This document shows, piece after piece, positions 53,062 to 63,670 of a stretch of 64,000 nucleotides of DNA. The position numbers and the translations under genes were made by a program. The stretch comes from an uncultured Candidatus Saccharibacteria bacterium. Lineage in GTDB: Bacteria > Patescibacteriota > UBA1384 > CAYGGE01. The notes below the pieces were generated by a model. That model saw nothing but the letters and a program-made list of their open reading frames with translations. It was not told where the DNA came from and did not search any database. The number at the start of each line of letters is the position of its first letter. The first letter of the stretch is position 1. The DNA is taken from the NCBI GenBank assembly GCA_964349485.1, contig CAYGGE010000004.1, positions 4,628 through 68,627 of the forward strand. The letters are read 5' to 3'.

Positions 53062-54984
53062 TTGGTGACAACCCATAAACTTTTTGTTGGAGCGCTTGCC
53101 GTAACCATCGCCATGGGAGCGTTCTTTTTTGTTGCCGCCTCACCTGCTGATGCGGCCGCGGTCAATGTGACTCGTTGTACCAATGGCAAGATCAAAAAGA
53201 AACCACGTGCCGATGTGACTTATTATAGGAATAATAAAGCCGCCTGTGATGCCGCTTTAGCCAACCCATCGGCTAGTCCATCCATTAGTATTTCGCCGAC
53301 GCCCAGTACGACAATTAATCCGTCACCTACCGCTTCCGTCTCACCAACGGCTACGCCGATCGCGACACCAAGCCCAATCATCACCGTGGTTCCAGTCGGT
53401 GAGACCGTCACGGTTGTTCAGCAACAATGGGTCGCCCAACAATCAGGTGTGACGCCGACCATGATCAATAACTTGACTACAACCACGGCGAAGCTTTGTG
53501 GTGCTGAGCAGGATTTGGGGGATAAAGCAGTTATTTGGACAAAGTATCTTGATCTCAAAAAAATTAACCGTCAAAAAGACACAACAAAGTTAGTTGGCGT
53601 TCGCAACCAACTGATGAGTCAGTCGAACATGATATCCAATGTCTTTGCATTGACAGAAGGCAATACGGCAAAATGGTCTCGTTTGCACATTACCTTTAAT
53701 TTGGCTCAAAGCGGTACCCTTGAGCTATATTATCGAGTGAGTGACAGCGGTGGAACGGCTAGTGCCGCCGATAAAGATTGGATTAAAGTTGCCGATCCAG
53801 CTTCAATTACTACCGAACAGTGTGGAACAACGGCTGCACCCTCGCGATTGGCTAGCTTTACTATCAATCAGACGGGCAAGTATTTTCAGTACATGATACG
53901 CATGACAAGTCCGAAGACCGGGAAGCCCCAACTTATCCGACGGGTTTCACTCCACGGCCAAGCGCTAGAGAGAACCGAAACCTATCCATCACCAACGCCA
54001 ACTCCGTCTGGTAGCCCAACAGCTTCGACTACTCACGGTAAGATTACTATTGTAACTAAGAAATTGGTGATTGAACCCACTGTGAAAAAAGTAGACACTA
54101 AAACCGGTTCTGCGCCACTACCAGACATCACACCTCGGAATACACCGTCGCCAACTCCGACTAGTAGTGCCTCGACTAAGCCAAAGGTCGACCCGTTTTG
54201 TTTTGCTGATCACGAAACCGACTATGCTCCGGAAGTGCCAATCAGGATTCGTCAGACCGAGGGCGGTGATGCTTTAGTTGAAGATGAGACGACCAACGAC
54301 CTTGGGCTTTGGAAAGGGCTCGAAGGTAAGGTTGACGAGTTCAAGACAGGGGCTTATCGAATCAATTTCGGCGAGTTTCAAAAAGATGACTACAAATTGG
54401 TCGCGATCTGCGTGTCGCCGGATAGTTACCTTCACTATGTCAAAACCCAGACCACGGCTTCAGGTAGTCAAGCAATCGTGATGGTCCTACCGAATAAAGA
54501 GACTAAGATCACCGTCCTCTACGCACCGCGCGATAAACCGTATGTCTCACTCGATACATTTGCCGTGACCGAGGCCAATAAAGTGAAGCGAGTTGCCTAC
54601 CCAGGTCAGAGCTTCCGCTATATCATCCGCTATGAAAATACTGGCGATGTGGCGGCCCATAATGTGGTTATCCGAGATGTCATCCCAGAACAGTATTATG
54701 TGCCCAATGAAGAGACCCTGGGTGAACAAGGACCGTTTACTTCGGAGATCGATAACCAGGGAAGAACGGTGATCGTTAAATCGGTTGGGGTACTAGCTAA
54801 AGGTCAAAAAGGCTCTCTGACGATACCGGTCATCTTACGTTCCAACGCCTTCGGTTCGCCAGACGATATCGCCGCGCGATTCGGAGTCGATACTAGCTCT
54901 GGTGGTGCAAATCAGCCGAAGACCTTGATTTCGCCGACATCAGCAGCTACTGACAGTGGTGATGGTGCACTTAATTTAGAATAA
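53062..54984 (+). CDS. Large secreted or surface protein with PT/PS linkers and a C-terminal DUF11 (conserved repeat) domain
   Basis: Signal/TM, low-complexity Pro/Thr/Ser linkers, and AYPGQSFRYIIRYENTGDVAAHNVVIRDVIP... which is DUF11-like. Confidence 0.55.
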   Translation: MVTTHKLFVGALAVTIAMGAFFFVAASPADAAAVNVTRCTNGKIKKKPRADVTYYRNNKAACDAALANPSASPSISISPTPSTTINPSPTASVSPTATPIATPSPIITVVPVGETVTVVQQQWVAQQSGVTPTMINNLTTTTAKLCGAEQDLGDKAVIWTKYLDLKKINRQKDTTKLVGVRNQLMSQSNMISNVFALTEGNTAKWSRLHITFNLAQSGTLELYYRVSDSGGTASAADKDWIKVADPASITTEQCGTTAAPSRLASFTINQTGKYFQYMIRMTSPKTGKPQLIRRVSLHGQALERTETYPSPTPTPSGSPTASTTHGKITIVTKKLVIEPTVKKVDTKTGSAPLPDITPRNTPSPTPTSSASTKPKVDPFCFADHETDYAPEVPIRIRQTEGGDALVEDETTNDLGLWKGLEGKVDEFKTGAYRINFGEFQKDDYKLVAICVSPDSYLHYVKTQTTASGSQAIVMVLPNKETKITVLYAPRDKPYVSLDTFAVTEANKVKRVAYPGQSFRYIIRYENTGDVAAHNVVIRDVIPEQYYVPNEETLGEQGPFTSEIDNQGRTVIVKSVGVLAKGQKGSLTIPVILRSNAFGSPDDIAARFGVDTSSGGANQPKTLISPTSAATDSGDGALNLE

Positions 54985-54997
54985 TAAAAATTGAAAA

Positions 54998-57358
54998 GTG
55001 GGGTTTGTGACTAAGGCTAAACTACTTGTGACGGCATCGACTGTAACGGCCATGATCGCTGTTATTAGTTTTAGTGTCGCTAGTGTCGACGCTCAGACGC
55101 CGGCCGGTTTTGAGCCGACTGGTAAGCAGGTGGTCTATCACCAAGCGAATTGGAACGGTGTCGAGGATGCTAATCGTTTAGCGATCGATCTCACGCTAAC
55201 GACAGCGACGCCGCCAAATAATTGGAGAACCTTTTGGCAAGATTACGTCCATAGTGAAGTAACCTTTCCAGGGGCAACCGGTCTACGTTTAGTTCGATCA
55301 ACTAGTTACCGTAAGCATCAGAATGTTCAAGTTAAAGCCGGCGTTGTTGAAGGTCGTAATAATGGGGTTATTGCGACAGATTACTATATTTCCGACGGTC
55401 TAACTGCCAGTACAGGTGACACAGTGCTTTGGCAGGCAATTAGCTTTGCCTATCGCGCCCCGACTCGCGACGCTATGACCCTTTCGTATCGAGTAGCCGA
55501 TACACTGACAACTGATCCTGCCGCTACTGACTGGCAAGCGGTAACCTTGCGATTCGCTAACAGGAATCAGACAGCAAAAGTTAAGATTAGCCCGACAGTT
55601 GGGCAAGGGAAGTTCTTACAATTTAAGACGAATATCTCTAGACCGAATAATTTTTTGAATACGGCAACTGTAGTTGGTCAGCCACTTCGGAATCTATCGA
55701 CTGTCCCAACGCCAACACCATCCGACAATCCAGGTCCTGGCGATGGTACACCGACTCCAACACCAACGACTACCACAATCATTACTGAACAACTAAAGGT
55801 AGTCCAGCAAGCCTTCATGCCGATGGTTCCAGCCCGACTGACTCCAATCATCGTGAATGAGCAGTCTGCGATTGCAAATGATCGATATTGCTCGCTTGCT
55901 GACCCATCGGGCATGCGTAGTTACCGGTGGAGCAAATCATTACGTTCAGTTGGCGTTGTTCCTGCGGTGACACGTGATAGTGAAATAATGGGTATAGCGG
56001 GTGTCAATGGCCGAGCCCTTCGCAATGCCTATGTCATCTCGAACCCAATGACGATCGAGAGTACGGGACCGATAACCTGGAGGCGGTTTGATATTGAATT
56101 CGATAAGAACCTGCCAGGAACTGTCGAGACCTATTATCGACTATTCGATGATCCGACAGGAGCGATAAACAAGCCGGTCGATCCGACCTGGATTAAATTG
56201 GCGGATCCGGCAACCGTTAACCCAACAGCCTGTGAGAGTAGTTACTTAGCGAGTTATCAACTAAATCAAACAGCCAAATACGTCCAATACAAATTCCACG
56301 TCATCTCTAAACGAATAGCCAGTCGGTTACAGAAACAGGTCATCCGACGCATTAATCTCTCTGCAGATGCTACTCGAACAGTTATTGTTACGCCGACCCC
56401 TTCATCCTCTGCTACTCCGTCAGGTACTCCGACACCAGTGGGTGACGGCACACCTACCCCAACGCCAACCGGCTCTGGGACAGCTTCCAGTACCGGTCAT
56501 ATGACGATTATAACTAAGGTTCTTAGAGTACCATCTGCCACGCCAACTCCCAATGCTACAGGGCCAGCTTTGCCACCTAGCGCTTCACCAACTGCGACTG
56601 CTTCATCTAGCGCACCACCCGCTCTGAGTTCTCTCTGCTTTAACCAATATGAAACAGAAATTGCCCCCAACGTCGGTTTACGTGTTAAAGCCAAAGTTAG
56701 TGGAGGTTTTGACGCCGAAGACGAGACGACCAATGATCAGGGTGTTTGGCGAGGACTTAATGGCGCACGGGACGAGTTTCCTTCAGGTCGCTACGACGTG
56801 ACCTTTGGCGACTTCGAACCCGATGAATTGGGCCTTGTTGCTTTCTGTGTTGAGCCAAACAATGACCTCTACTACGTCCAAACGGCAATGAATGTTAAGA
56901 ATAAATTAGCGGCAATCAATATCCTACCTGGAGTAGAAACTAGATTAATTGCCCTTTATGCTCCTAAGAACCAACCATTCGTGAAACTTGAAAAGTACTC
57001 CCTAGCTGGCAATATTGATAAAACAGGTGCGATCATCAAAGAAGCGATACGCAAGAAGCTCAAAACCGTCAATCCTGGCCAGACTTTCCTTTACCGCATT
57101 ACCTATGAGAATACTGCCAGTAGCGCGGTAACTGAGGCTGACGCTAAAGATCTGTTAATTCAAGACGTTATTCCCGAGGGACTTGAATTGCCAGCAGTCG
57201 TCATTGAGAATCCCGAGCTTTATGACATCGAGATTCGGTTCGACACTGCCAAAAACCAGACAATTGTCGCCAGGACCATTGAGCGATTGAAAGCGGGCGA
57301 GTCAGGTTTTATCGACATTCCAGTTACCGTGAACACTAGCTTATTTCCGGTGAAGTAA
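54998..57358 (+). CDS. Large surface protein, tandem paralog of 53062..54984, with a C-terminal DUF11 domain
   Basis: Shared blocks with the upstream gene (CF..ETD/EIAP...EDETTNDxGxWxGL...) and the same DUF11 motif (VNPGQTFLYRITYENT). Confidence 0.55.
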   Translation: MGFVTKAKLLVTASTVTAMIAVISFSVASVDAQTPAGFEPTGKQVVYHQANWNGVEDANRLAIDLTLTTATPPNNWRTFWQDYVHSEVTFPGATGLRLVRSTSYRKHQNVQVKAGVVEGRNNGVIATDYYISDGLTASTGDTVLWQAISFAYRAPTRDAMTLSYRVADTLTTDPAATDWQAVTLRFANRNQTAKVKISPTVGQGKFLQFKTNISRPNNFLNTATVVGQPLRNLSTVPTPTPSDNPGPGDGTPTPTPTTTTIITEQLKVVQQAFMPMVPARLTPIIVNEQSAIANDRYCSLADPSGMRSYRWSKSLRSVGVVPAVTRDSEIMGIAGVNGRALRNAYVISNPMTIESTGPITWRRFDIEFDKNLPGTVETYYRLFDDPTGAINKPVDPTWIKLADPATVNPTACESSYLASYQLNQTAKYVQYKFHVISKRIASRLQKQVIRRINLSADATRTVIVTPTPSSSATPSGTPTPVGDGTPTPTPTGSGTASSTGHMTIITKVLRVPSATPTPNATGPALPPSASPTATASSSAPPALSSLCFNQYETEIAPNVGLRVKAKVSGGFDAEDETTNDQGVWRGLNGARDEFPSGRYDVTFGDFEPDELGLVAFCVEPNNDLYYVQTAMNVKNKLAAINILPGVETRLIALYAPKNQPFVKLEKYSLAGNIDKTGAIIKEAIRKKLKTVNPGQTFLYRITYENTASSAVTEADAKDLLIQDVIPEGLELPAVVIENPELYDIEIRFDTAKNQTIVARTIERLKAGESGFIDIPVTVNTSLFPVK

Positions 57359-57462
57359 GCCCTCTTCACGTCAATTTTGGAAGTATGGTATTATAAATAT
57401 ATAAAGAAGTTTCTGCTACTTGCTGCATTGATAATGCTGTAAGCCCAATAAAGAGGGGTCCC

Positions 57463-58197
57463 ATGACGCAACGGGAAAAAACACGCTTCATCGTCCTCAC
57501 CGTGATCTTAGTTATCTTGGTGGTCGCCGGATTAAGTATCAACCGATTCATCCGTAAGACCAGCGTCGGAGCTGATTTACTGGGTGAGATTCAAAACCAA
57601 GCCGTCGCTACTTACACTGATGCCGACGGTTTAGATATGCCCTTATCTCTTTCAAATATCAGCCGAGTTCAGGTCAGTAGCGGAACGAACAATATCGCCG
57701 CTAGCTATACCCTTGAAAAACGCCAGAGTCAGACTGCTCTCTTCGATGTCCAGTTCTATCGAGCTGGTGATGATTCTCCATTGACCACTGTGCGGGATAA
57801 AAAAGGCGAGTCTGGTACCTTATCGACAACGCTTAAGAATATTCCTAACGGTCGTTATGACATTACTATCAAACCCCTTGGCTTCTTGAGTGCAGTGGTC
57901 TTCGATTTTGCCTACGTCAATGGCCAACGGGCAATTCTTGAATACAAAGATCCCTTCCTGTGGGGTGATATTGACAAGAGCAATAACAACAAAGGTGACA
58001 ATGTGGTCAACAACGCGGACTGGTTCGAAATTGTTTCGAACTGGGGCAATGATTACCCCAAAGCCGATCTAAACGGTGATGGAACAATTAACAATGTCGA
58101 CGCTAGCGTCATGTTGGCTAACTGGGGTAAAGAAGGTAGCCGGTTTACGAGTGTGGTTACTACCAATGAAGATATCGCTAACGAGCCAACATTCTAG
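57463..58197 (+). CDS. Membrane-anchored protein with a C-terminal dockerin-like double repeat
   Basis: GDIDKSNNNKGDNVVNNADWFEIVSNWG and ADLNGDGTINNVDASVMLANWG match dockerin type-I Ca-binding repeats. Confidence 0.6.
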   Translation: MTQREKTRFIVLTVILVILVVAGLSINRFIRKTSVGADLLGEIQNQAVATYTDADGLDMPLSLSNISRVQVSSGTNNIAASYTLEKRQSQTALFDVQFYRAGDDSPLTTVRDKKGESGTLSTTLKNIPNGRYDITIKPLGFLSAVVFDFAYVNGQRAILEYKDPFLWGDIDKSNNNKGDNVVNNADWFEIVSNWGNDYPKADLNGDGTINNVDASVMLANWGKEGSRFTSVVTTNEDIANEPTF

Positions 58198-58223
58198 CGT
58201 CTATAAACTAAAGAAGGGTTCAC

Positions 58224-58805
58224 TTGAATAAATTCACTGTCGCATTCATCATCATTATCTTAGCAGGTCTACTTGCCACTGGCTTTGTCTATTTCCGTCG
58301 ACCAGCGACTAAGCACATCGGCGCCAGTACAGACGTGCCTGTCGGTACCGCCACTTTAGAGCTCGTACCAAGTAAAAGATCACTCAGCGTCGGTGAGCAA
58401 GTGACTGTAGAAGTAGTCGGCGATACCGGGGAAGACTTGACCACAGGCGTTGATCTCGACTTACGCTATGACCCCGTTTTATTTGAACTAGTTGATGCTG
58501 ATACAGTGACGGCTGGTGTCCAGATCGGGGCAGGATCGTTGTTCGATTTGGTCCCTCACAACGTTACGACTCTGGCGACTGGACTGATCAGCTATTCGAC
58601 GAGCCAACAACCAACAGAAAATCCGATTAAGCTTACCCAAGGCAAAGTAGCGACCATCACTCTTAAAGCGAAAGCGGTCGGCACGTCTACGATCAGCTTT
58701 ACTCATACTCCAGGATCGCTGTCTGACACCAACATCATAAAAGCTGGAGATGGCCGGGACTTGTTAAACAATGCGACAAATCTTGAGATCACGATTGTCA
58801 AATAG
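58224..58805 (+). CDS. Membrane-anchored cohesin-like domain protein
   Basis: N-terminal TM, then ATLELVPSKRSLSVGEQVTVEVV...LDLRYDPVLFELVD...ATITLKAKAVGTSTISF, a cohesin-like beta-sandwich pattern. Confidence 0.5.
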   Translation: MNKFTVAFIIIILAGLLATGFVYFRRPATKHIGASTDVPVGTATLELVPSKRSLSVGEQVTVEVVGDTGEDLTTGVDLDLRYDPVLFELVDADTVTAGVQIGAGSLFDLVPHNVTTLATGLISYSTSQQPTENPIKLTQGKVATITLKAKAVGTSTISFTHTPGSLSDTNIIKAGDGRDLLNNATNLEITIVK

Positions 58806-58830
58806 CTCCATGAAGGAGAAAGGATCGGGA

Positions 58831-59619
58831 ATGATCAGACTGACTAATATGCAACGGCTAACCCATGATCTACTGCTGGTTATTGGAGCATGTATTGTGG
58901 CATTGGCTGTTCCAGCTATCGCCAGTGCGGCAACATTGACACTTTCGCCGACATCGGGAACCTATGCAGTGGGTGATACCATCGAAGTGAAGATCCAACT
59001 TGATACGAGTGGGATCTCGACTAGTGGGACTGACGTCTACGTTCGTTTCGATCCTAATGTACTCCAGGTTGTCGATAGTAACAGTTCCGCAACCGGTGTC
59101 CAGATTAGTCCCGGCACACTTTACTCTCAAACCTCGTTCAATAGTACAGACAACGGGGCTGGCAAGGTGAGTTTCTCTGGTTCTAAGAGTGGTGGCTCGG
59201 CTGGCTACTCAGGCAGTGGAACGCTGGCAACGATTAAATTTAAAGCATCGGCAGAGGCGAGCACGACCAGCGTGACTATCGATTACCAAGCTGGTTCGAC
59301 CACCGACTCAAACGTGATTAGTCAGGCAGATAGTAGTGATGTTTTGACTAGCGTAACTAGCGCAGCATACAAAATATCGGCTGCAGGCGGTACAACAACC
59401 ACTACCACCACAACTACGGCCGATGATACCGATGGTGATGGCGTCAAGAATGCCGTCGATCCAGATGCTGATGGTAATGGTGTAGCCGATGCCTCAGAAG
59501 GTAAGGGTGGTTCCGGTAGCGTGCAAGGCACAGGTCTCGACTTGACAGGTTACATGTTGCTGACGCTTATCTCAATGATTGGCGCTGGGTACTTTCTTAC
59601 TCGTAAGACAAAGCACTAG
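58831..59619 (+). CDS. Cohesin-like domain protein with a C-terminal sortase sorting signal (LDLTG, hydrophobic segment, RKTKH)
   Basis: Start taken at MIRLTNMQ, which has a GGAG SD. Cohesin-like ATLTLSPTSGTYAVGDTIEVKIQLD...VRFDPNVLQVVD; a T-rich linker; C-terminus GLDLTGYMLLTLISMIGAGYFLTRKTKH. Confidence 0.6.
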   Translation: MIRLTNMQRLTHDLLLVIGACIVALAVPAIASAATLTLSPTSGTYAVGDTIEVKIQLDTSGISTSGTDVYVRFDPNVLQVVDSNSSATGVQISPGTLYSQTSFNSTDNGAGKVSFSGSKSGGSAGYSGSGTLATIKFKASAEASTTSVTIDYQAGSTTDSNVISQADSSDVLTSVTSAAYKISAAGGTTTTTTTTTADDTDGDGVKNAVDPDADGNGVADASEGKGGSGSVQGTGLDLTGYMLLTLISMIGAGYFLTRKTKH

Positions 59620-59653
59620 TTGCTAGTCACTAGTAACTAGTGAACTAGTAGTT

Positions 59654-60343
59654 ATGCACTATCATATTGCCCCTGAACCTGATAACAAGAGTTACCGAAG
59701 ACACAAGCTGATCGGTCTTTTTTGTTTATTATTGTTCTTAGTTTTAGTGGGAAAAATATGGGTTCCCTATGCCAAGGCAGCGATCAACGCAACAGCGATT
59801 ACTTTCTTGCCGCCGGCTTGGGCGAAAAGTTACATTGAGGCGACGTTGCCTGATACGGCGAAGACCAAAAGCGAGAACAGGTTAATCATTGGTACGAACG
59901 ATCTAGCAATCGAGGCGCCAATTATCGATGGTATTGGTCCGACTGCCTTATTGCAAGGTGTGGGTCATGATCCAGCCTCCTCAAAACCAGGAGAGCAAGG
60001 TCGAGTCGTCATCTCTGGGCACCGCTTCTGGCCCGATGCTTCCCCCTGGGCTACGGTTTTCTTCTCGCTTGATAAACTGAAGAAGGGGGACAAGATTAGC
60101 TTAGTGTATGATGGCCAAACGTACGTCTACACCGTGTTTGAGCAGTGGGATGTTCCTAAAGAGAAGGCTTATCCTCATCTCGAACCATCGACAGAATCGA
60201 TATTGACTATCTATACCTGTGGTCCAACACCGTACACTGCCAGAAATCGCCTCGGTTTTCACGCCAGACTCGATCAGAGTACACTAAGACAGACTTCTCT
60301 GGAGACCTTACAGACTTTACAGAAGGGAGTTCTAGAACAATGA
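59654..60343 (+). CDS. Sortase family transpeptidase
   Basis: N-terminal TM anchor, a His in VISGHRF, the catalytic TLxTC-type motif ILTIYTCGP, and a downstream Arg. Confidence 0.75.
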   Translation: MHYHIAPEPDNKSYRRHKLIGLFCLLLFLVLVGKIWVPYAKAAINATAITFLPPAWAKSYIEATLPDTAKTKSENRLIIGTNDLAIEAPIIDGIGPTALLQGVGHDPASSKPGEQGRVVISGHRFWPDASPWATVFFSLDKLKKGDKISLVYDGQTYVYTVFEQWDVPKEKAYPHLEPSTESILTIYTCGPTPYTARNRLGFHARLDQSTLRQTSLETLQTLQKGVLEQ

Positions 60344-61134
60344 ATAAATTGATCATCGCTAACTGGAAGATGAATACGACATTTTCTGATGCCCTCATTT
60401 TGGCTAATGGCATTAAGAAGGGTTTACACGATATTTCTGGAGCTGACGTTGTACTCTGCCCGCCATTTCCTTGGCTGGTACCTGTTGCTGAAGCACTCCA
60501 TCAGCATCCGGCCAAGCAACTTAAGCTAGGTGCTCAGAATGCTTTTTGGACACAAAGCGGGGCCTATACTGGAGAAGTCTCGCCAGTCATGCTCAAAGGC
60601 CTGGTTGAATATGTAATCATCGGTCACTCGGAGAGGCGAAAACATTTCCAGGAGACCGATCTAGAAATAGGCGCAAAACTTAAGGCGGTGCTTGATCAAG
60701 GTATGAAGCCGATTCTTTGCGTGGGCGAGCAACGTCGACCAGCCGATGCCTACCTTGATGAACCAGAGACCCTTAACCAAACTCATTTCCGAGAAATGTT
60801 TAGTCAAATCCGTCATGCTCTACACAAATTGACCGATGAGGAAAAAGCGAAATTGGTAGTAGCCTATGAGCCTGTCTGGGCTATCTCAACTACGAGCTCC
60901 GCTGCCCGGCCAGCGACCGGGTCGTATGCTGCCTATGTCTGTCAGGCAATCCACGCATTACTCAATCGTTTAGGTGGAGCGAAGCTGGAGGTTGTTCCTG
61001 TTCTCTATGGTGGGAGTGTTAAGTCTGCGAATGCCCGTGAGTTCTTAAGCCAAGAATCGATTGATGGTCTGCTCGTCGGTGGAGCTAGTCTTGATATCAG
61101 GAGTTTTTTAGCGATTTGCCGGAGCACCTACTAG
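60340..61134 (+). CDS. tpiA: Triosephosphate isomerase
   Basis: IANWKMN, IGHSERR and the YGGSV loop. Its start overlaps the sortase stop (ATGA). Confidence 0.9.
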   Translation: MNKLIIANWKMNTTFSDALILANGIKKGLHDISGADVVLCPPFPWLVPVAEALHQHPAKQLKLGAQNAFWTQSGAYTGEVSPVMLKGLVEYVIIGHSERRKHFQETDLEIGAKLKAVLDQGMKPILCVGEQRRPADAYLDEPETLNQTHFREMFSQIRHALHKLTDEEKAKLVVAYEPVWAISTTSSAARPATGSYAAYVCQAIHALLNRLGGAKLEVVPVLYGGSVKSANAREFLSQESIDGLLVGGASLDIRSFLAICRSTY

Positions 61135-61210
61135 CTTGATACTTGTTTTTTGTCATCGTACAGACGTGATTTGTAAACATTACTACGCTATGGGATACTA
61201 AGTATTACTC

Positions 61211-63670
61211 ATGAACAAGCGACAAAAGGAGCAAGAAAAGATGACCCGGAGCACGTTGCGGCTGACTGTTGCGCTAGCTGTCGTTTTAATCATTGGGATT
61301 ACTTTAGGTATTACGACTTATCTTAAACCCAAAGCCGACGAGGTTGTGAGTCAGCCATGCTTGATTGATAGAACTGTCTCCGTCTTGGCTGATCGACGCG
61401 AAGCCACCGTCACCCCGAGTCAAACCGGTCGCTTTAAGTTCATGATTACTCCCGGTACGGCTGAGGTTACCCCAATCGAATTCGACGTCTCGGGAACGGC
61501 TAGTCGGGGTGACTATACGGTTACGCCAGAGAATGCCCAAGACCTCAACTTTGACATTGCTCCGGCTACAGGATCGTTTAAAGTCAGAAGCAGTACATTC
61601 TATGCAATTATCGCTATTGCCAATATACAGCAGTACATCGATAAAACGGTCACCGTAACGCTTCGAAGCAAGTCTGGTATTGTTATCGGTTCAGCCAATA
61701 CTGCCACCGTCCGGCTTTATAATCCCGATCCAGGGAAGCCATCGATTGTGGTCGATAGCCCGTTGGACAACGCCCACTTTACTAGTAGTCCCAATCTACA
61801 AGTCAATCTTGGTGCTCACGTCTTCGTCCCAACTAACACAACTGGTAGCCAGAGCGTCACGTTCTATGTTGATGGCACAGCTTACCCGGCTACGACCAGT
61901 GGTCAAAATGCTACCTACACCCTGAACAATCCTTCTGTCGGTCGTCATACAGTCCGTGCCCAGCTAACTGCTGGACAAAGGGTCGTCAATAACGATGACC
62001 AACCTATTCCACCTGGTCAAACGACTATCGACTTTATCGTCGAACCAGCCCCACCCTCACCCAGTCCAAGCCTTACCCCAACACCCGGTGGTACGCCAAA
62101 TTCAGTCCCGGTGAGGCCAGGTGCATTCTTACTACCTCTGCACGATTATTTCGCTCCTAAAGCACTTGCCCAAACCACCCAAGAAAGGGTGCTTTGCGGC
62201 ACGGTTGTCGATAGTGTAACCAGAGCACCATTGTCAGGAGTTCATGTTCGTTACGAAGCCAACAAATTCTATCAAGACATCTTAGAAACCGAGACAGATA
62301 CTTCGGGAAGATTCCTCTTCCGTAACGTGCCGGCCTGGCGAGCTGATGAGATCGAACGCCGAACGGCAGGAAGCTACTGGTTTAAAGTCCTCTTACCGGA
62401 AATTGATACACGTAATGGCTACCCTGCTGTGATTTACAAATCTCAAACTGACGTGGCGGCTGCGCCACAGGGAACCAATATCCGGATCGATCGTCAAAAG
62501 GGCGGTAAAATTACTGGCACGGTGAGAGATGATGCTGGCCAGCTAATTCGTAATGGAACTGTTCAGATTTCTGCCAATAATGTACCATATGGTGAGGTGG
62601 AAATTGCCAATGACGGAACATATACGTCAACTTATCTACCGACAAACATTGCTCTTGATGTCGTGGCTTGTTCTAGGCCATTTGCTAGCAATGGTTGTAG
62701 TCAGAGTATCCAGCCAAAACCCTATGCCAATATCGTCCCGACCGTAGTCAATATTGTTGTGGACCGACTATGGCGTATTCGGGCAACGATCGTGGGTCGT
62801 GAGGTTACTGATTGGAATAATGTTATCGTTAAGGCCACCGATGAATCATCTGGAGTTGTTCGTCAACTAAAAAAATCAGAAGGCGAAAGTTTCCCAGGTG
62901 AGTACGAATTTAGGTTCAATACTGCTGAAGCAAATGCATCATACAGCATCCAGGCCTTTCGATATCACCGTAATGGTACGGTGGCTCTGCAGTCCACAAA
63001 TCGTGTAATACATGTTAGTCCTGGAAGACCAAGCCCGGCTGAAGTACAGCTAACCTGGAAAGATACAATGTCTGCATCGCTCCAATACGAGACCATACCA
63101 TATATGCTCCCAGGCTGTACGATTAGGAGTAAATTTGATGACTGTCGAGGTGTGGCGCTGGGCGAGTTTTTGACGAAAAAGGTTGCCCCCAATGTAGCTG
63201 ATCTGCGAAGGCGAATGGGTGCGCCGGCAGGGGCGGCAATCACAATTGAGACGATAAAATTTTATCCACCTTCGACGAGTATAGGTGAACCAGTAGTCAT
63301 CTTCGATGAGCGTGATCAAGAAGTCGACCGACAAACGACAATCTTAACTGATGAGCGCGACACAGAGCCTTATGGTAGAGCCAAACTCCTGCCATCGCTT
63401 GACCCCCAGCGTTATCGAGTCAGTATTACCCCAAACGAACCGCTCGTCTTCTGTCTGAAAATGCTATTTAAGAAAGGCTCGACAAACCAGATACGCTACG
63501 TTCGTGTCTCAAGTGAAGGAAAAATTGTCGGTACGATTAACTACCCAAGCGAAACCGACTATGTATTCGATTCCTGGGGCCGAACGCCTTATGGTTCATC
63601 GCCAAATTACGGATTCCTTGACCTAAACAAGACAACTACCGCTCCACCAACAACGACTAGCTGCCTTTAG
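61211..63670 (+). CDS. Large secreted protein of 819 aa with carboxypeptidase-regulatory-like beta-sandwich repeats
   Basis: N-terminal TM/signal, a PSP-rich linker, and CGTVVDSVTRAPLSGVHVRYE...SGRFLFRNVP and GKITGTVRDDAGQLIRNGTVQISANNVPYGEVEIANDGTYT (CarboxypepD_reg-like). Confidence 0.5.
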   Translation: MNKRQKEQEKMTRSTLRLTVALAVVLIIGITLGITTYLKPKADEVVSQPCLIDRTVSVLADRREATVTPSQTGRFKFMITPGTAEVTPIEFDVSGTASRGDYTVTPENAQDLNFDIAPATGSFKVRSSTFYAIIAIANIQQYIDKTVTVTLRSKSGIVIGSANTATVRLYNPDPGKPSIVVDSPLDNAHFTSSPNLQVNLGAHVFVPTNTTGSQSVTFYVDGTAYPATTSGQNATYTLNNPSVGRHTVRAQLTAGQRVVNNDDQPIPPGQTTIDFIVEPAPPSPSPSLTPTPGGTPNSVPVRPGAFLLPLHDYFAPKALAQTTQERVLCGTVVDSVTRAPLSGVHVRYEANKFYQDILETETDTSGRFLFRNVPAWRADEIERRTAGSYWFKVLLPEIDTRNGYPAVIYKSQTDVAAAPQGTNIRIDRQKGGKITGTVRDDAGQLIRNGTVQISANNVPYGEVEIANDGTYTSTYLPTNIALDVVACSRPFASNGCSQSIQPKPYANIVPTVVNIVVDRLWRIRATIVGREVTDWNNVIVKATDESSGVVRQLKKSEGESFPGEYEFRFNTAEANASYSIQAFRYHRNGTVALQSTNRVIHVSPGRPSPAEVQLTWKDTMSASLQYETIPYMLPGCTIRSKFDDCRGVALGEFLTKKVAPNVADLRRRMGAPAGAAITIETIKFYPPSTSIGEPVVIFDERDQEVDRQTTILTDERDTEPYGRAKLLPSLDPQRYRVSITPNEPLVFCLKMLFKKGSTNQIRYVRVSSEGKIVGTINYPSETDYVFDSWGRTPYGSSPNYGFLDLNKTTTAPPTTTSCL

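Follow-up and report, generated by a model that had tools for sequence, protein, structure and literature searches.

Type II complexes of a cohesin with an X-module-dockerin (XDoc) serve to anchor the complex to the cell surface. In these systems the anchoring scaffoldins are SLH-held and the XDoc is carried by a multi-cohesin, enzyme-loading scaffoldin. Cohesins and dockerins also occur in other settings: the 2009 survey of Peer et al., 'Noncellulosomal cohesin- and dockerin-like modules in the three domains of life', reportedly catalogues such modules and is said to place them in non-cellulolytic organisms, frequently within one protein or encoded by adjacent genes. In Ruminococcus flavefaciens, the single-cohesin protein ScaE is fixed to peptidoglycan through a C-terminal sortase signal, and its partner CttA is an XMod-Doc dyad, the complex being for adhesion rather than catalysis (PMC4266597). 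The class E sortase SrtE1 of Streptomyces coelicolor uses an LAXTG signal (PMC5148588), and CLIPPER/DUF7619 domains form the stalks of fibrillar adhesins (PMC12617251).

We describe here a sortase-cohesin-dockerin cassette that is a real, coherent system and for which, by analogy, the ScaE-CttA adhesion pair appears to be the closest counterpart. It lies in the 64-kb stretch of DNA that we analysed (the window), which comes from an ultra-small bacterium of the Patescibacteria (CPR). Judged by sequence and model, Coh2 and XDoc of the cassette (Table 1) reproduce the pairing of a sortase-anchored cohesin with an XDoc. However, the two N-terminal cellulose-binding modules of CttA have no counterpart in the CPR XDoc, where only a hydrophobic helix and a conserved linker are found. 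The cassette also includes two CLIPPER/jelly-roll proteins and an extra cohesin that lacks a wall anchor. Further differences are a probable VAxTG rather than LPXTG-like signal, a sortase gene that is adjacent, and a non-cellulolytic, ultra-small host. The type II complexes of Clostridium thermocellum and Acetivibrio cellulolyticus (2b59, 5k39, 4u3s) give the best structural matches of XDoc (E-values down to 8e-7), and ScaB type II cohesins the best sequence matches of Coh1 and Coh2, but sequence identities are only 15-21% and the cassette has a sortase anchor and neither a scaffoldin nor enzymes. The CPR loci share the same-protein or neighbouring-gene pattern of the noncellulosomal modules. 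A syntenic cassette of six genes in fixed order, with a sortase of its own, is something that we did not find described for Patescibacteria in the papers searched.

Table 1. Positions of the cassette genes and of the Coh2 sorting signal in the window.
Feature	Coordinates	Strand	Description
DUF11a	53062..54984	+	640 aa, secreted, adhesin-like
DUF11b	54998..57358	+	786 aa, DUF11a paralogue
XDoc	57463..58197	+	244 aa, X-module-dockerin
Coh1	58224..58805	+	193 aa, single cohesin, N-terminal hydrophobic anchor or signal
Coh2	58831..59619	+	262 aa, single cohesin, C-terminal sorting signal
Coh2 cell-wall sorting signal (putative)	59521..59616	+	VQGTG, LDLTGY, hydrophobic segment, RKTKH tail
Sortase	59654..60343	+	229 aa, TM helix at the N-terminus, triad H123/C189/R199, subclass unassigned

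All seven plus-strand open reading frames that the initial annotation had assigned to the locus are present where it placed them (eight with tpiA included), and the public gene calls on identical contigs differ from their boundaries by a few codons only. The gene order DUF11a-DUF11b-XDoc-Coh1-Coh2-sortase is found again in seven other contigs (L004, L005, L006, L010, L017, L018 and L019), with protein identities of 38-80%, and the clustering is therefore not due to chance. In every genome seen the cassette sits between proS and tpiA, and in the window its surroundings are those of housekeeping genes in a reduced genome. Distances between its genes are 13-104 bp, and the sortase stop codon overlaps the start of tpiA by 4 bp. 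The tpiA product (Pfam TIM, 241.8 bits) is a housekeeping neighbour and not a cassette member. The 819-aa protein encoded after tpiA, which had been counted as a component, has a CarboxypepD_reg domain (45.2 bits; Pfam cut-off 32.3) but falls outside the conserved unit, because in L017-L019 RNase Y follows tpiA and in L004 no homologue was found downstream of it. What had been read as a seven-component locus is thus a coherent conserved cluster with a core of six genes, the CarboxypepD_reg protein being unconserved and tpiA housekeeping. Pfam and NCBIfam reveal no catalytic or CAZyme domain in any cassette protein, and with no enzyme present the cassette is not a cellulosome. This absence and the synteny across Patescibacteria MAGs back the earlier reading of the locus as a coherent surface-assembly unit, not a cellulosome, in a symbiont with a small genome.

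The protein formerly described as dockerin-like is, judged by its modelled fold, specifically an X-module-dockerin. Its N-terminal hydrophobic helix (residues 3-31) could be a signal anchor, or else a long signal peptide that has its conserved cleavage-type site at V-G-A↓D, and is followed by a conserved linker (36-66), an X-module-like beta-sandwich (68-160) and the dockerin (165-222). The N-terminus, MTxxERxRF, is predicted to be cytoplasmic and is invariant, as is the juxtamembrane linker. Pfam Dockerin_1 by itself is sub-threshold (16.4 bits; cut-off 22.9), but the dockerin call stands because XDoc matches the solved dockerin 2y3n_B in a PDB sequence search (E 3e-5), six of its orthologues have a precomputed Dockerin_1 (PF00404) annotation, the calcium ligands are conserved and the fold agrees. 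Within the family D202, N204, D206, N210 and D213 are invariant, as are G168, D169, G178, D179, N183 and D186, and every calcium-ligand position of dockerin repeat 2 is invariant. In a Foldseek search of the PDB with the AF2 model (pLDDT 83-93 over residues 72-222), each of the top 10 matches is to an X-module-dockerin chain from a type II complex (E 8e-7 to 1.6e-4). The whole-chain rmsd to these chains is ~8 Å, which suggests a different inter-domain arrangement. XDoc has no cargo domain, so any role as an adaptor is tentative.

Coh1 and Coh2, which share 32% identity, both exceed the curated Pfam Cohesin (PF00963) cut-off of 24.1 bits, at 36.7 and 47.8 bits respectively, confirming the two cohesin-like proteins of the initial annotation. 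Residues 42-163 of Coh1 match type II cohesins of A. cellulolyticus ScaB with known structures (phmmer, E 4e-4), and the Coh2 family profile likewise matches ScaB type II cohesins, 4u3s_A among them. Coh1, which is syntenic in 7/7 related contigs, has no C-terminal anchor, and the positive charges of its N-terminal helix lie on the 'wrong' side. Coh2 is composed of a cleavable-type signal peptide (…AIASA↓AT), the cohesin (residues ~40-162), a Thr/Asp-rich stalk and the sorting signal. It is the probable substrate of the sortase. No other open reading frame of the window has a sortase-type tail, and a tail-and-motif scan of 438 open reading frames (259 kb of related loci) picked up Coh2 orthologues only. 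LDLTG, previously taken as the sorting signal, is literally there, but the conserved motif is VQGTG (residues 231-235), five residues upstream. Among 30 orthologues the columns of this motif hold V in 29, A in 24, T/S in 30 and G in 30, giving a family consensus of V-A-x-T/S-G. In the LDLTG register, the Thr is retained in only 5/30, and L006 and L010, which read EVANTG-LDLTT, have lost the Gly; we reject LDLTG as the sorting motif on these grounds. The sorting motif of Coh2 is thus most probably VQGTG, which is class E-like.

The sortase, reported earlier with a TxxTC motif, does contain T-I-Y-T-C and scores 77.7 bits against Pfam PF04203 (cut-off 26.6). Its H123, C189 and R199 align onto the catalytic triad of solved sortases and are invariant among five syntenic orthologues. 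None of the findings named beforehand as counting against the cohesin, dockerin or sortase calls was obtained. The NCBIfam models give 62-66 bits for class D and 61.7 for class E, whereas assignment to a subclass would take 140-165. With the subclass unassigned, a VAxTG specificity may be read from conservation of the motif. Likeness to class E extends to the Ala at P3, common to V-A-x-T-G and L-A-x-T-G, and to membrane anchoring through an N-terminal helix. On the other hand, the class E score is far below that model's cut-off of 160, class D scores at least as high, P4 holds Val instead of Leu, and the class E-specific Tyr position appears, by eye only, to be Asp106 in the CPR family.

DUF11a begins with a signal peptide, a Pro/Thr linker, a jelly-roll (residues ~106-307) and an isolated conserved strand (325-335), and continues with a beta-sandwich (385-490) and a CnaA-like domain of the CLIPPER/DUF7619 type (495-600), after which a tail of low complexity closes in a conserved G-x-L-x-L-E. 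DUF11b (32% identity to DUF11a over 535 columns; syntenic in L004, L017, L018 and L019) lacks this tail and has one more N-terminal jelly-roll, a second match (24%) to residues 106-242 of DUF11a. Of the claimed tandem DUF11 paralogues, DUF11a passes the family threshold (DUF11 25.3 bits, cut-off 24.6; DUF7619 29.6 bits, cut-off 27) and the paralogy holds, but DUF11b reaches only 13.6 bits for DUF11, below the Pfam cut-off. In both proteins DUF11 accounts for only the last ~100 residues, the remainder being one or two jelly-rolls and then the beta-sandwich. The model of DUF11a is laid out like an adhesin, and both proteins look like adhesins in which a jelly-roll binding domain precedes a CnaA-like stalk. 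They resemble CLIPPER/DUF7619 adhesins in being secreted surface proteins with a C-terminal CnaA-like domain after putative binding domains, but have one CLIPPER copy instead of a long tandem stalk, and no sorting or anchoring domain. As neither contains a dockerin or a sorting signal, it is conserved synteny that argues for their physical link to the complex.

Cohesins related to those of the cassette form a very large metagenomic family, in which 13/13 named genome matches are CPR. Among 114 representatives of the subfamily, PG_binding_1 (28), PG_binding_3 (3), SH3_3 (1) and GW (1) domains are alternative wall anchors, nine representatives carry Dockerin_1 and two are cohesin-DUF11 fusions. 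Cohesin genes adjoin Dockerin_1-positive genes (28-35 bits) in Doudna-, Daviesbacteria and other Saccharibacteria, and one polypeptide from distant CPR genomes combines Cohesin, Big_7 and Dockerin. The dockerin-bearing neighbours in related CPR loci have fn3, Big_7 and TIG domains and no catalytic domain. In Southlakia, a Saccharibacterium amenable to genetics, no cohesin is annotated.

On balance we favour, with some reserve, a reading of the cassette as an enzyme-free cell-envelope assembly unit with Coh2 as socket, XDoc as plug and DUF11a/b as outward adhesins. The six products, judged by their N-terminal hydrophobic signals, would be exported or membrane-inserted. The membrane-bound sortase would then cut Coh2 after Thr234 of VQGTG and join it covalently to peptidoglycan, a step suggested by motif conservation and strict gene adjacency, leaving Coh2 as a wall-fixed cohesin. 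The calcium-dependent dockerin of XDoc may dock, type II-style, into Coh2 and/or its membrane-proximal paralogue Coh1, as its fold and the cohesin-dockerin fusions and adjacency in other CPR genomes suggest; the pairing is supported by the match of the XDoc fold and the cohesin profiles to partners of the same type II complexes. DUF11a/b would be the functional parts, held at the surface through the cohesin-dockerin complex and most likely acting as adhesins whose ligand is a glycan or protein of a host cell or of the environment.

A structural envelope module, in which membrane-held XDoc clamps wall-linked Coh2 as a tether and DUF11a/b form an S-layer-like coat, is possible but unlikely. The invariant MTxxERxRF and juxtamembrane linker of XDoc would be unusual for a cleaved signal peptide, the constant proS-tpiA embedding suggests a core function, and many related cohesins are peptidoglycan-bound. 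But the conserved V-G-A↓D fits signal-peptidase cleavage equally well, no S-layer family was detected, nothing points to lattice formation, and CLIPPER and jelly-roll architectures are typical of adhesins. We consider it improbable that the cassette is a minimal scaffold like those of cellulosomes, amylosomes or mucinolysomes, with Coh1 and Coh2 recruiting dockerin-bearing glycoside hydrolases for polysaccharide degradation. These enzymes would be encoded elsewhere, our view covering 64 kb of the genome; cohesin, X-dockerin and sortase anchor are canonical anchoring parts of ruminococcal cellulosomes, and the DUF11a jelly-roll resembles CBM6/35/36/61. Against this stand the enzyme-free cassette and dockerin-bearing CPR neighbours, the housekeeping setting in a reduced genome, and a window that encodes one dockerin and two proteins with a single cohesin each, but no multi-cohesin scaffoldin.

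Less probable still is a sortase-assembled pilus or fibre in which Coh2 is polymerised or joined to a lysine of DUF11a/b, which contain domains of the isopeptide type, instead of peptidoglycan, even though the stalk domains of DUF11a resemble the pilins GBS52, BcpA and CppA, DUF11b has a weak NCBIfam match to an isopeptide-forming fimbrial domain (E 0.011), and the best PDB sequence match of the sortase is the class C enzyme 8t28_A (E 1e-9). The NCBIfam class C score (45.9 bits) is under those of classes D and E, DUF11a/b have no sorting signal, the alignments show no conserved pilin-type YPK motif, and the locus offers one sortase and one substrate, with no second sortase, housekeeping type included, in the window. 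The 104-bp gap between DUF11b and XDoc, with its weak terminator-like hairpin, could be taken to mark a chance neighbourhood of unrelated secreted proteins, but the shared gene order and the cohesin-dockerin adjacency and fusions in other CPR classes make this very hard to credit.

Returning to the enzyme-free assembly unit, we infer a function in adhesion or envelope assembly, with the surface assembly possibly serving host attachment. The cassette would be vertically inherited in a Patescibacteria lineage related to Saccharibacteria and Berkelbacteria, and would re-use the anchoring half of the cellulosome. If the proposal is true, an ultra-small bacterium has put cellulosome parts, without their enzymes, to use in surface assembly.

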